This document shows, in pieces, positions 17,514-22,637 of a stretch of DNA of 64,000 bases. The notes beneath the pieces were generated by a model. That model saw only the letters and a program-made list of their open reading frames with translations, did no database searches and was not told the DNA's origin. The stretch is from Escherichia coli (GTDB lineage: Bacteria > Pseudomonadota > Gammaproteobacteria > Enterobacterales > Enterobacteriaceae): NCBI RefSeq assembly GCF_013122565.1, contig NZ_CP053258.1. The stretch is one strand, 5' to 3'. Each line of letters begins with the position of its first letter. The first letter of the stretch is position 1. Position numbers and translations under genes: made by a program.

Positions 17514-17520
17514 TGAGAAG

Positions 17521-17547
17521 ATGCCCGGCGCGGATCCTGCCGGGCAT
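17521..17547. terminator. GC-rich hairpin between convergent cirA and the island transporter (possible bidirectional terminator, no U-tract)
   Basis: atgcccggc gcggatcct gccgggcat: 9-bp perfect stem. Confidence 0.35.
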
Positions 17548-17571
17548 AATGCCAGAAATTCGGTTCTGGAT

Positions 17572-18894
17572 TTATAACCGATGAAATTTTGCCAGTAAGG
17601 CCAGTGAAAATGTTGTCAGCAAAATGGTAATGACGGCGTAAATATACACGCCTGACCATTCCCAACTGTTTTTCACCATAATAACTGGAAGCCCTGCCAT
17701 TGCCGCGCCTACATAACTAAATAAGCCCCTGAACCCAGTAATGGAACCTGCCGCATCTTTATGCGTAACATCAAGACATCCGACAGCGAATAACATATGT
17801 GGTCCATATAATGCAAACCCCATGATTGTAAAAAGAATAGCCGTTAATGTGTAGGAGACGTCCTGCACCAGCGGCACGAGAACGATGCAAATACATAAGG
17901 CGATGGCAAACATTAATCCGGTCATCCAGCGGTTACTTTTAAACATAAAATCGGACAAGTACCCCGCCAGTAATCCCCCTGCAAGTCCACCTGCTTCAAA
18001 CCAGGATATAATGGAGTTCGCTTTAATCAGGCTCCAGTTATGAACCTGAGAATAATAAATTTGTGGCCAGTCATTGAGGATGGTGCGTGCAATATAGACT
18101 GACATATCCCCGAGGATAATCAGCCAAACTAATGGGTTGGTAAGAATATATTTAATGAAAATTTGCCAAAAACTCAGATCTACCGGGCTTGCTTTAACTT
18201 GTGCAAGTTCTGTCGGGTCGTTGCGCCACTTACCTACGTTAGGCAAACCGAGTGTGCCAGGACGATCTTTAATCGTAAACAGGGCAACAACCCCCATAAT
18301 CAGCGATATTACACCCGGAACATAAAAGCCCATTTTCCAGCTGCCACTAAAAGCAATGGCAAAGCTTGTCAGGAGAGGCGCAAGACTACCGCCAATATTA
18401 TGCGCCGCTTCAACAACTGCCCACCAGCGCCCGCGTTCATTTTTAGAAAACCACGAGGCCATAATTTTTGCCATCGGCGGAAAACTGGTACCCTGAAGAA
18501 TAGCATTAAGGCTATACAGGATATAGAACGCAGCAACGCTGTCTGAAAAACCGAAAAGAATGTTAACAATACCGACGCCAATAAGTACGGGGCCGGTCAT
18601 TGCGCGTGGGTTAATTTTATCGACTAACATGCCCCCTACAAACTTCATGGAGCCATAAAGAATGTAAAAGACCGACGACATGATAGCGAAATCTTGTGCG
18701 GTTAATGACGTATCCGTCAACATCGCCGGCATGGCCGCAGAGAAATTCTTGCGGGTTAAATAAAATACGGCATAAGAGATAAATACAGAGGTGATGATTT
18801 CAATACGAAATTTTTTATAAGTATGATCAACTTCTTCTTTCGGTTTGACCACTGGTTGGTCGGCCTGGCTGAAAATAAATTTTTTCAAGCTCAT
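17572..18894 (-). CDS. Organophosphate:phosphate antiporter family MFS transporter (GlpT/UhpT/PgtP-like); accessory
   Basis: 440-aa 12-TM ORF; N-terminal VDHTYKKFRIEII and YLTRKNF, WFSKNERGRWWAVVEAAHNIGG and YGPHMLF closely parallel GlpT/PgtP signature regions recalled from E. coli/Salmonella; RBS aaggaaa before the ATG. Confidence 0.8.
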   Translation of the reverse strand: MSLKKFIFSQADQPVVKPKEEVDHTYKKFRIEIITSVFISYAVFYLTRKNFSAAMPAMLTDTSLTAQDFAIMSSVFYILYGSMKFVGGMLVDKINPRAMTGPVLIGVGIVNILFGFSDSVAAFYILYSLNAILQGTSFPPMAKIMASWFSKNERGRWWAVVEAAHNIGGSLAPLLTSFAIAFSGSWKMGFYVPGVISLIMGVVALFTIKDRPGTLGLPNVGKWRNDPTELAQVKASPVDLSFWQIFIKYILTNPLVWLIILGDMSVYIARTILNDWPQIYYSQVHNWSLIKANSIISWFEAGGLAGGLLAGYLSDFMFKSNRWMTGLMFAIALCICIVLVPLVQDVSYTLTAILFTIMGFALYGPHMLFAVGCLDVTHKDAAGSITGFRGLFSYVGAAMAGLPVIMVKNSWEWSGVYIYAVITILLTTFSLALLAKFHRL

Positions 18895-18926
18895 CGTGAG
18901 TTTCCTTTTCTGTGAACCTTATGGTG

Positions 18927-19814
18927 CTATAGTTTTTCTTCTATAAAAAAGAGAAGCGACTCGAAACCATTAAAATTAATCTGGTTAGTAACTTTTTCCC
19001 GGGTTTTAGGTTTTGCTTTCCATGCCACGCCATACCCGGCATGCAGAAGCATAGGAATATCATTAGCGCCATCTCCGCAGGCAATGATGTTTTCACGACA
19101 AATAGATAACTCTGTCGCCAAATTTATCAGGGTTTGCTTTTTCTTTTCTGCATTCATAATGGGAAAGGTAATTTTGTCAGTTAATAGATCTTCCTGAATG
19201 CGTACAGAGTTAGAAAATGCAAAATCAAGTTGATATTTTTCTTTTAATCTCTCAGTAAAAATATCTAAACCGCCGGATATAATTGCCGTCTTGAATCCTT
19301 TTTCTTTAAGAATGGGAAGAATAGTTTTAAGACCTGGTGAAAGGGTCATCTGTTCACAAACCTGATGCAATATATCTTTATGTGTTCCTTTAAGCATGCC
19401 AATTCGGCGGGTAAAACTGGTATCAAAATCGATTTTTCCTTCCATCGCTTCACGGGTCAGCGCGGTGATTTTTTCAGAGATCCCGAGTCTACGGGCTATT
19501 TCATCGACGCCTTCCTCTTCAACAAAGGTGGAATCCATATCAAAGGCAATAATTCCCTCAGCCGGTAAGTCCGTAGGTTTGCGGAAAAAATCAAAATGAT
19601 GATGATCAGCACGGTGACGTAAACCAGCATAAAAATCAGGATTGGTTACATCATCTGTTAATACTAGCTTTAGATACTCTTTATTTATTTGCTCACTGTA
19701 ATTCGTTGTTAACGAAAACACCGAGGATGAAACCTTTAAATGTTGCAAATAATGTTCCAGACATTTTTTGGTGATGTCGATGCCTGTTGGCGACAAGAAA
19801 TAAATAATCGTCAT
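18927..19814 (-). CDS. Phosphoserine-phosphatase-like HAD hydrolase (SerB paralogue); accessory
   Basis: 295-aa ORF with HAD motif I FDMDSTF, EAMEGKIDFDTSFTRRIGMLKG and GDGANDIPML...AWKAKPK closely paralleling E. coli SerB catalytic-domain motifs; no signal peptide. Confidence 0.8.
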   Translation of the reverse strand: MTIIYFLSPTGIDITKKCLEHYLQHLKVSSSVFSLTTNYSEQINKEYLKLVLTDDVTNPDFYAGLRHRADHHHFDFFRKPTDLPAEGIIAFDMDSTFVEEEGVDEIARRLGISEKITALTREAMEGKIDFDTSFTRRIGMLKGTHKDILHQVCEQMTLSPGLKTILPILKEKGFKTAIISGGLDIFTERLKEKYQLDFAFSNSVRIQEDLLTDKITFPIMNAEKKKQTLINLATELSICRENIIACGDGANDIPMLLHAGYGVAWKAKPKTREKVTNQINFNGFESLLFFIEEKL

Positions 19815-20023
19815 TTACCGCTCCTTTTTATCTGCAATGATTATAATAAGGTTTCGTAGCGGCTGATGTATCTAACAATCACAGTTGTGAATGTTAAATA
19901 AAAGATAAAAAAGTGCTTTTTTTGATACCCTGAAATAATAAGATACTAAAAGTACCATTTTTGATACCTTTGCCAGGATATAACGAATAACGAGTTTCAA
20001 CGTTGAAGGAATCATTTACAAAA

Positions 20024-21376
20024 ATGGAAAGCTGCTTAGATATATTCAAGATAGTTATAGGTCCATCCAGTTCCCGCACTGTCGGGCCAATGCGTGCGGC
20101 TTATAATTTTGTCTCACAATTGAAACAGCGAGAAATGTTACCTTTGTTGCGGAAAATTGATGTCGAACTTTATGGCGCACTGTCATTAAGCCGCAAGTGC
20201 CATAATGTTGATGTGGCGATTTATCTCGGTTTGCAAGGTCACTTACCTGACAGCGTTGATATCCGCATGGAAATGTCCGCCATCAGGCGTGCGGAAACTG
20301 AGGCGACGCTGGAAGTTATGCCTGGTGTCAACGTTGGTGTAGCCATTATTTCTAATCCACAGGCGCACCCGGGGCATCCTTATGCGATGACATTTCGTGC
20401 CAGAGATGACTGGTTTACGCTTTATGAAGAAACCTGCTTTTCTGTCGGCGACGGTCAGGTTCAAAAAGCGGGAGAGGCGATGATTCCCTCCTCAGTCACT
20501 CCACATCCTTTTGAATTCCAGAACGCAAACGAATTATTAAAACTTTGTCAGCAAAACGGATTATCTGTTGCGGCATTAATGATGAAAAACGAACTACACT
20601 GCCAGACTTCTGATTTTTTGCATGACGATCTCAATAAAAAATGGGAAGTAATGAAGGATGCGGTCTATCGCGGGATGCATACAGAGGGATTACTTCCTGG
20701 TCCGTATCAGGTTAACCGTCGTGCCTGTGCTTTATATAAATCGTTGCAGGCAAAGGGGTTTACCAATGACTTCCTGACTACGATCAATTGGGTCAATACT
20801 TTTGCCATTGCGGTGAGCGAAGAAAATGCTGCAGGTGGACGCGTCGTGACAGCACCCACCAACGGCGCGAGCGGTATTATCCCGGCCGTACTGTGTTGGT
20901 ATGACAAATTCATTCACGAGCTTGATACTTACTCCGTTACCCGCTTTTTTCTGACCGCCGGTGCCATAGCCATTCTGTTCAAAAAAAATGCCTCTATTCT
21001 GGGGTCTGAAGTTGGATGTCAGGGGGAAATAGGCGTTGCCAGTTCAATGGCGGCAGCAGGATTAGCAGAACTTATGGGCGGGTCAGTGACTCAGGTACTC
21101 AGCGCGGCAGAAATTGCGATGGAACACCATTTAGGTTTGACCTGTGATCCAGTTGGCGGGCAGGTACAAATTCCTTGTATTGAACGAAATGCTATTTCAG
21201 CCGTGAAAGCTATCAACGCAACGACGATGGCTTTGAGTCGCATAAGCGAGCCGTGCATTACGCTGGATGAGATAATTTCCGCGATGTATGAAACCGGAAA
21301 GGATATGAGCGCTAAATACCGGGAAACTTATCATGGCTGTCTTAGCAAATTGCAGCCAAGAAAAAAGGACGCGTAA
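20024..21376 (+). CDS. L-serine dehydratase (Fe-S, SdaA/SdaB/TdcG family paralogue); accessory
   Basis: ORF-track 20003..21376 starts at a TTG; ATG at 20024 ([23 protein letters not shown]...) aligns with the SdaA N-terminus [23 protein letters not shown]; conserved [25 protein letters not shown] and LTCDPV..GQVQ.PCIERNA blocks. Confidence 0.85.
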
Positions 21377-21377
21377 G

Positions 21378-21767
21378 ATGAAATACAATACCATGAATAA
21401 CAACGAAATTATTTTATCTCTGTGCGCACGTATTAAAGAAACGCGGATCTCATTATCATTGACCCAGCAGCAGTTAGCCGATCGTGCATTGGTGGGCATT
21501 GCAACGGTCAAGCGGATTGAAAAGGGGGGAAGTTTAAATCTTGATACCCTCATTTCTCTTCTGCGCGCGCTGAATAAATTGCAAAATCTCGATGCCATAT
21601 TGTTCGAAGCAGAAATGCGTAATTTCAATGAAAATACTTCCAGCGGCGAAGGGGCAGGGCGACTTCAGGTGCGCCAGCAACTGACAGATTTAAACCAGAA
21701 GTCTCCAGCCCCGCACGCAGATGACCGTGATTTTAGTACGGCGCTGGAAAATACTCTTTGCTGGTGA
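21378..21767 (+). CDS. XRE-family (Cro/CI-type HTH) transcriptional regulator; accessory
   Basis: ORF-track 21333..21767; ATG at 21378 (MKYNTMNNNEIILSLCARIKETRISLSLTQQQLADRALVGIATVKRIEKGG) begins 1 nt after the dehydratase stop; typical HTH_XRE signature. Confidence 0.75.
   Translation: MKYNTMNNNEIILSLCARIKETRISLSLTQQQLADRALVGIATVKRIEKGGSLNLDTLISLLRALNKLQNLDAILFEAEMRNFNENTSSGEGAGRLQVRQQLTDLNQKSPAPHADDRDFSTALENTLCW

Positions 21768-22637
<870 letters not shown>

Follow-up and report, generated by a model that had tools for sequence, protein, structure and literature searches.

A gene cassette that includes a homologue of the iron-sulfur (Fe-S) L-serine dehydratases was analysed in a 64,000-nt stretch of Escherichia coli DNA (NCBI RefSeq assembly GCF_013122565.1, contig NZ_CP053258.1), which is called the window here. 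The chromosome is E. coli-like: the gene order is lysP-cirA-[insert]-yeiG-folE-yeiB-galS-mglB and the flanking DNA matches complete E. coli genomes at up to 99.1% identity. In strain K-12 the stop codons of cirA and yeiG are only 31 nt apart, whereas in the window the two genes are separated by an insert of 4.2 kb (17572-21767), which comprises four genes and has a GC content of 0.37-0.48 compared to 0.52-0.55 in the flanks. The genes are arranged as two divergent operons. The leftward operon (minus strand) starts with a gene for a SerB-type phosphoserine phosphatase paralogue of 295 aa, designated SerB2 (18927-19814), and continues with a gene for a transporter of 440 aa belonging to the organophosphate:phosphate antiporter (OPA) family of the major facilitator superfamily (MFS; 17572-18894). 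The rightward operon (plus strand) consists of the gene for the dehydratase homologue (20024-21376, 450 aa) and a gene for an XRE/HTH_3 regulator of 129 aa (21378-21767). A control region of 209 bp (19815-20023) lies between the two operons.

Of 5426 complete E. coli genomes, 89 carry the insert, in every case on the chromosome and at the cirA-yeiG site. Most copies are intact (85 of 89), and the remaining four are cut by the insertion sequence (IS) element IS1, with IS1 insertions and deletions. The same four genes in the same order and at the same site were found in Salmonella enterica (STM2195-STM2198, assigned by position), S. arizonae, S. diarizonae, eight Citrobacter species, Scandinavium and Escherichia whittamii. 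At one further locus (L009) the cassette adjoins yeiG with other genes on the opposite flank, and at another (L011) it is located in a different genomic context. All four cassette genes are under purifying selection, with ratios of nonsynonymous to synonymous substitution rates (dN/dS) of 0.015-0.22. The conserved unit is the whole four-gene cassette and not the dehydratase-regulator pair alone.

The dehydratase gene encodes a type 2, single-chain Fe-S L-serine dehydratase homologue of a distinct clade. Pfam domains SDH_beta (133 bits) and SDH_alpha (282 bits) are present in one polypeptide, the protein scores 545 bits against TIGR00720 (L-serine ammonia-lyase, single chain; cutoff 345), and its closest solved structure is the Legionella enzyme 4RQO (E = 5e-108, residues 3-441 aligned). 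Its dN/dS is 0.06-0.14. The preliminary description of the locus had called the gene a fourth L-serine dehydratase paralogue. In agreement with this, sdaA, sdaB and tdcG are near-universal in E. coli (5424, 5425 and 5393 of the 5426 complete genomes), and strains with the cassette almost certainly carry four homologues. The cassette enzyme is not a plain SdaA-type copy: it carries 21 clade-specific substitutions and has no C-terminal cysteine. It shares 50-53% identity with SdaA, SdaB and TdcG, which are 73-77% identical to one another, and it misses the SdaA and SdaB equivalog models (NF011614, 509 bits, cutoff 873; NF011598, 464 bits, cutoff 942). The clade is narrow: sequences within it share 67-98% identity with the window protein, and the next sequences drop abruptly to 53-54%.

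The alignment that had been proposed for locating the Fe-S ligand cysteines revealed all three of them (C332, C374 and C385, spacing C-X41-C-X10-C), and none of them varies among 15 sequences of the island clade and 109 canonical ones. H60 corresponds to His61 of the Legionella enzyme lpLSD, which is cited as the catalytic base (PMC12647591), and the serine triplet S15-S17, T19 and D63 are kept as well. The 21 substitutions fixed in the clade fall on sites that are invariant in the 109 canonical sequences, including Legionella lpLSD. Around the catalytic His61 and in the GPSSSH loop these include H19R, T57S, G58R, G60C and T63V, and among the others are HENGM to HPYAM, S337L, A339S, R412T, K427E, T431A and S447Y; in window numbering the clade markers are R18, S56, R57, C59, V62 and the HPYAM motif. 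GPSSSH reads GPSSSR in the cassette enzyme, and TGKGHxTD reads SRKCHNVD. A cysteine among the last five residues occurs in only one of 15 island-clade sequences, compared to 103 of 108 canonical ones. It is absent from the window protein, which ends in a basic, cysteine-free tail (...KLQPRKKDA). The C-terminal residue Cys458 of 4RQO is a ligand of the fourth iron and acts as an intrinsic competitive inhibitor (PMC12647591).

According to these differences, L-serine may not be the substrate, or not the sole substrate, of the enzyme. The remodelled loops and the missing cysteine could reflect another substrate, such as a beta-substituted amino acid or O-phosphoserine, or an activation different from that of SdaA, SdaB and TdcG. 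Five of the 21 fixed substitutions lie within four residues of His61 or in the GPSSSH loop, two of them (H19R, G58R) bring in arginines, and the scores far below the SdaA and SdaB cutoffs fit this explanation too. Nevertheless, we regard it as unlikely, given that the enzyme passes the general equivalog TIGR00720 and retains the cluster cysteines together with S15-S17, T19, H60 and D63. Moreover, the neighbouring SerB-type phosphatase makes L-serine the obvious intermediate, and distant relatives of the cassette regulator accompany canonical serine dehydratases (see below).

The mechanical open reading frame of the dehydratase (20003-21376, 457 aa) opens with a TTG codon (20003-20005). The preliminary description had noted this TTG, had preferred an ATG at 20024 (20024-20026) preceded by an AGGA 13 nt upstream (20007-20010), and had considered the start ambiguous. 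These elements were found in the sequence as described, and the preference for the ATG held up: the protein read from it aligns residue for residue with the N-termini of SdaA, SdaB and TdcG, and no other start is conserved among 19 loci, which represent at least ten species and all initiate here. In C. youngae the codon at this position is TTG, a substitution that initiation codons tolerate. When eight loci were aligned, conservation set in exactly at ATG-GAA-AGY-TGY, and the DNA upstream was unalignable. In Scandinavium, Citrobacter sp. On2M, C. koseri and the L011 locus there is no in-frame start between the upstream stop codon and the ATG. The RefSeq gene models for island-bearing E. coli, which were produced by the Prokaryotic Genome Annotation Pipeline (PGAP), are the same as ours, with 450 aa, a gap of 1 nt and 129 aa.

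Translation from the TTG at 20003, yielding a protein of 457 aa, is very improbable. The open frame has no earlier start codon, and one large protein cluster built from automated calls (P0001, 457 aa) uses this TTG. It is confined to Escherichia alleles, though, without a conserved counterpart, the AGGA is located downstream of it, and it is the ATG that PGAP selects, that coincides with the onset of conservation and that serves lineages with no upstream in-frame start at all. The start ambiguity is real for gene-calling software only. A purine-rich block 10-13 nt upstream of the dehydratase start is also found in Salmonella, C. freundii and Scandinavium. A spacing of 13 nt between AGGA and ATG is longer than typical for Shine-Dalgarno sites of E. 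coli. The initiation region of the dehydratase is thus atypical yet consistent across these genera.

The dehydratase stop codon (TAA, 21374-21376) is followed by a single nucleotide (G, 21377) and the ATG of the regulator (21378-21380), precisely as described before. The distance from stop to start ranges from -23 to +4 nt in all 19 loci: it is +1 nt in Escherichia and L009, +4 nt in Salmonella, C. koseri and L011, -11 nt in Scandinavium and one Citrobacter, and -23 nt in most Citrobacter. The regulator start codon is ATG, GTG or TTG and always occupies the same alignment column, and the codons following it are conserved (K-Y/F-N/H-T-M-N-N) with synonymous changes between the loci. An alternative regulator start at ATG 21333 was rejected, as it is missing in four lineages. 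The Shine-Dalgarno sequence of the regulator, AAGGA (21365-21369), lies within the last dehydratase codons, 8 nt before the ATG. A purine-rich element at 5-10 nt from the regulator start and inside the dehydratase coding sequence is present in 19 of 19 loci. The ribosome-binding site of the regulator gene, read in the dehydratase frame, accounts for most of the variable basic tail of the enzyme (QPRKKDA, QPRKRG, QPRKRGGMHEISHHE). A scan of the operon revealed no promoter-like or terminator-like signal above background between the two genes, which fits co-transcription.

From this arrangement it had been concluded that enzyme and regulator are probably co-translated. The close stop and start codons and the downstream Shine-Dalgarno sequence inside the upstream reading frame are the classical anatomy of translational coupling, which we consider plausible, leaning slightly towards it. 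The junction can be explained in another way, namely that the genes are merely packed in an operon and that the regulator is translated independently of the dehydratase. Short gaps and overlaps are very common between operon neighbours in enterobacteria, and the regulator has a good Shine-Dalgarno sequence of its own (AAGGA at 8 nt), so that initiation at this site explains the data equally well. The drift of the stop/start geometry from +4 to -23 nt points in the same direction. In the window the regulator AUG lies in a predicted stem, which has a z-score of -1.4 and is no better than shuffled sequences, and no conserved RNA structure over the regulator start was detected by RNAalifold in seven loci; RNA structure at the junction was therefore rejected as evidence for coupling. 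The varying geometry and the lack of a conserved hairpin indicate that coupling is not required to explain the arrangement. On the other side, the distance never exceeds 4 nt in the 19 loci despite saturated synonymous divergence, as would be expected under selection for proximity, and we hold independent translation to be somewhat less probable than coupling. The junction itself is ordinary operon anatomy that is already annotated.

The regulator contains an HTH_3 domain (PF01381, 37.5 bits, gathering threshold 23, residues 19-66). Conservation extends along the entire protein and takes in a C-terminal half (GRLQVRQ...ALE..LCW) that has no known domain; the nearest solved relative is a weak match (4GHJ, E = 2e-4). 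Domain searches revealed no recognisable ligand-binding domain. The preliminary description had suggested that the regulator could regulate its own synthesis in response to pathway flux, and nothing points to such flux sensing. The more modest part of the idea, autoregulation as such, is plausible, since binding at the candidate operator described below would control the operon that encodes the regulator. A HipB/Y4mF-type antitoxin was considered and rejected (TIGR03070, 41.6 bits, cutoff 71.65), and no toxin gene is adjacent, the neighbours of the regulator gene being the dehydratase gene and yeiG. The stop codon of the regulator gene (TGA, 21765-21767) directly abuts that of the convergent yeiG (21768-21770); the corresponding genes of Salmonella and Scandinavium share 12 nt.

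Full-length homologues of the regulator with 38-41% identity were found in a Budviciaceae genome (L029) and on a metagenomic contig (L030). In both, the XRE gene is located directly beside, and convergent with, a canonical sdaC-sdaB-like operon, whose dehydratase is 68-72% identical to SdaA and has both the GPSSSH loop and the C-terminal cysteine, and whose permease is 80-85% identical to SdaC. The XRE subfamily is thus linked to Fe-S serine dehydratase genes in two architectures. A third contig (L031) ends just past its XRE homologue and is uninformative. Another database protein, a homologue of the Salmonella regulator (P0204), shows systematic replacements of R by C, A by V, S by F or L, T by I and H by Y. 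This pattern is as expected from C-to-T conversion (e.g. bisulfite-treated or damaged DNA), and the protein is probably not a real variant.

The divergent control region is AT-rich (GC about 0.37), and an alignment of eight loci shows blocks in it that are conserved across genera. A palindromic block resembling a -10 hexamer, ATTATAAT (19840-19847), is situated about 25 nt from the serB2 start and is conserved in all eight loci; we infer that it is a promoter element. An inverted repeat TCACA-GT-TGTGA follows at 19879-19890, with TCACA being invariant across genera. A CRP site at this position was rejected by inspection, as the CRP spacing TGTGA-N6-TCACA does not fit, and likewise the spacing or the half-sites of the conserved motifs do not match CRP, FNR or Pho-box readings. 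Further downstream a direct repeat of 21 nt is present in two copies, the first of which (AAAAGTGCTTTTTTTGATACC, 19909-19929) is conserved across genera. The second (19948-19968) holds the quasi-palindrome GTACCA-TTTT-TGATAC (19952-19967). The repeat core TTTTTGATAC occurs twice in the 64-kb window, both times in the control region, with 0.18 occurrences expected.

At the place of the quasi-palindrome, Salmonella and three Citrobacter loci have a perfect TATCA-N4-TGATA. Two further copies of the palindrome are located upstream of sdaC in L029, where 0.17 are expected per 14 kb. Repeat copy 2 with its palindrome is a reasonable candidate for the operator of the XRE regulator. Two more matches to GTATCA-N4-TGATAC, with two mismatches each, were noticed within the dehydratase (20111-20126) and regulator (21532-21547) coding sequences, so that three of six matches in the window fall inside the cassette; those in the coding regions may be auxiliary operator sites or may have arisen by chance. 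The region also contains a perfect 9-nt inverted repeat, CCATTTTTG (19955-19963) and CAAAAATGG (20019-20027), whose second arm extends over the dehydratase ATG. Pairing of the 5' untranslated region over this ATG was rejected because its z-score is only -0.6 and because, by inspection, it is not conserved in Salmonella and Citrobacter.

The partner genes of the leftward operon suggest what the cassette may act on. SerB2 scores 210 bits against TIGR00338 (cutoff 144) and is a full-length relative of PDB entry 4EZE (E = 2e-115), which was deposited only as 'HAD-like hydrolase'. Residues D91, D93, E100, M123, F129 and R136 of SerB2 correspond to D11, D13, E20, M43, F49 and R56 of the Methanocaldococcus jannaschii phosphoserine phosphatase (PSP) 1F5S, which make up the nucleophile motif and the phosphoserine-contacting residues of that enzyme. 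The transporter has the Pfam domain MFS_1, and its best NCBIfam matches are UhpC, PgtP, GlpT and UhpT, all under cutoff. Its scores against the OPA models were 422, 340, 277, 216 and 195 bits, with cutoffs of 564, 408, 633, 750 and 497, respectively. Between E. coli and Salmonella the transporter is 92% identical with a dN/dS of 0.015, which makes it the most conserved gene of the cassette; the other three proteins share 63-74% identity (SerB2 63%), and the flanking CirA and YeiG share 87-88%. In Photobacterium lutimaris a gene for a 68%-identical transporter is directly followed by one for a different SerB-type phosphatase, which is 34% identical to SerB2 and reaches 243 bits against TIGR00338. 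No dehydratase or XRE gene is present at the P. lutimaris locus. This independent pairing of the transporter with a SerB-type enzyme supports a substrate of the phosphoserine type.

The cassette might instead handle a different organophosphate, such as phosphothreonine, a phosphoglycerate or another amino-alcohol phosphate, in which case SerB2 would be a broader phosphatase of the haloacid dehalogenase (HAD) superfamily. The transporter, although nearest to the UhpC and PgtP models, scores below every cutoff, the SerB2 orthologue in the PDB has a generic name only, and SerB2 evolves quickly, all of which would be compatible with such a substrate. We rate this as rather improbable, because SerB2 passes the SerB equivalog and keeps the phosphoserine-contact residues of the M. 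jannaschii enzyme, because the Photobacterium homologue of the transporter is partnered by an independent SerB-type enzyme, and because the partner enzyme within the cassette is a serine dehydratase homologue.

We consider the following picture fairly probable as a whole: the rightward operon encodes an Fe-S dehydratase homologue, initiated at ATG 20024, together with an XRE regulator, and the cassette serves a phosphoserine route under the control of this regulator. Of its elements, the sequences establish the gene models, the start codons, the conservation of the junction, the linkage of the four genes, purifying selection and the clade-specific residues; co-transcription, coupling, the operator, the direction of regulation and the substrate are predictions. 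The pathway itself is probably as follows, as deduced from the gene content. The OPA-family antiporter would import O-phosphoserine or a close analogue in exchange for phosphate, SerB2 would hydrolyse phosphoserine to L-serine and phosphate, and the dehydratase would convert serine to pyruvate and ammonium. The dehydratase and regulator genes would be co-transcribed from the 209-bp divergent region, and the regulator would be translated from the AAGGA in the 3' end of the dehydratase gene, either by ribosomes that have just terminated at the TAA or by fresh initiation. By either translation route, regulator output would follow the transcription of the operon. The targets bound by the regulator would be the TTTTTGATAC repeats together with the TATCA-N4-TGATA palindrome, which precede the dehydratase ATG by 57-115 nt, and through them it would control both divergent operons, its own synthesis included.

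Several observations tell against this picture. For the enzyme these are the 21 fixed substitutions, the loss of the C-terminal cysteine and, following from the sequence comparison, the possible departure from L-serine as substrate. For the leftward operon they are the OPA scores, none of which reaches its cutoff, the fast evolution of SerB2 and the generic name of its structural relative; moreover, we know of no characterised OPA transporter that carries phosphoserine. With regard to expression, the promoter scan detected no strong match to the sigma-70 consensus in the divergent region, the Shine-Dalgarno sequence of the dehydratase is poorly placed (13 nt), the XRE locus of L030 is without the palindrome, and the junction has a geometry varying from a 1-nt gap to a 23-nt overlap and no conserved RNA structure.

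In its widest form the proposal includes a dedicated, undescribed route for O-phosphoserine import and catabolism, a specialised clade of dehydratases in which the autoinhibitory cysteine at the C-terminus is lost and the loops at the catalytic histidine are remodelled, and a small dehydratase-associated XRE subfamily with TATCA-N4-TGATA operators. This combination is put forward tentatively and is less probable than the core of the proposal. Literature searches retrieved no paper on the function of this locus, no enzymology of this dehydratase and no description of the phosphoserine import and breakdown pathway.

Two published screens in Salmonella give weak hints on the cassette. Transposon insertions in STM2195 of S. 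Typhimurium were depleted in LB medium, at the 15th-17th percentile (PMC3487940). Under iron restriction, mutants in STM14_2709 (the dehydratase gene as judged by gene order) showed a small gain in fitness at the highest dose of dipyridyl (log2 +1.1, p = 0.026; PMC9308263).

The boundaries of the island were compared with K-12. The last two or three codons of yeiG differ between island-bearing and island-free alleles, which places the right boundary inside yeiG. On the left (window 17514-17571) the boundary lies in the loop of the hairpin that forms the cirA terminator; of this hairpin the left arm (GCCCGGCG) is common to the window and K-12 while the remainder differs. No direct repeats flanking the island were visible in this comparison. 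In most Citrobacter loci (L005, L018-L021, L023-L025) the left neighbour of the cassette is not the cirA orthologue but a gene for another TonB-dependent receptor in the opposite orientation, which is about 36% identical to CirA.

Allelic diversity of the cassette is marked and uneven across its genes. The window allele shares 94.9-97.9% identity with the 89 E. coli copies (best 97.9%), and in comparison to the E. whittamii copy the amino acid identity is 81% for SerB2 and 96% for the regulator. The cassette decays in some strains by IS insertions, deletions and a frameshift. Besides the IS1-disrupted E. coli copies, one C. freundii has an IS4-family insertion that shortens the regulator to 77 aa, with an IS110 element to the left, and in the C. 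koseri type strain the transporter gene seems to be frameshifted.

L-serine catabolism is reported to be of advantage to gut enterobacteria when the intestine is inflamed. According to a review, E. coli exploits L-serine for growth and virulence (PMC13168631). If the proposed route is true, most Salmonella and Citrobacter and about 1.6% of the complete E. coli genomes would be able to turn phosphoserine, possibly derived from phosphoproteins or from phospholipid breakdown, into carbon, nitrogen and phosphorus. It would also suggest a first substrate for two orphans, namely an OPA transporter and the structure 4EZE, and the XRE proteins would be a candidate regulator family for serine dehydratase operons. 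As a natural variant, the cassette dehydratase could help to examine the role that has been proposed for the C-terminal cysteine 'tail'. Should the prediction fail, what is left is an accessory operon, already annotated, whose stop/start junction is routine. The dehydratase and regulator genes are already annotated in RefSeq; what is added here is the cassette with its predicted phosphoserine route, the atypical dehydratase clade, and the dehydratase-linked XRE subfamily with its candidate operator. These are leads of moderate interest and not a new kind of system.

The components can be compared with the closest known systems. The transporter resembles UhpC, UhpT, GlpT and PgtP in its MFS_1 fold and its best profile matches, and it remains under every subfamily cutoff. 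SerB2 shares with SerB, PSP 1F5S and 4EZE the HAD-IB fold, the DxDST motif and the substrate-contact residues. It differs in being a second, accessory copy with 85 divergent N-terminal residues, and in its linkage to a transporter and a catabolic enzyme and not to serine biosynthesis. The sdaCB-type operons of L029 and L030 have a member of the same XRE subfamily beside an Fe-S serine dehydratase gene; there, however, the dehydratase is canonical, the transporter is SdaC-like, the regulator gene is convergent and not co-transcribed, and a phosphatase gene is absent. In comparison to SdaA, SdaB and TdcG, the cassette dehydratase has the same SDH_beta and SDH_alpha architecture, the same length, collinear N-termini, the C-X41-C-X10-C spacing and the catalytic histidine, whereas its gene is accessory and is accompanied by genes for a phosphatase, an antiporter and an XRE regulator instead of SdaC or the tdc genes. 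Between lpLSD 4RQO and the island clade, the cluster cysteines (343, 385 and 396 in lpLSD) and His61 are likewise conserved, but the Legionella enzyme ends in Cys458 and the island clade in a basic, cysteine-free tail.

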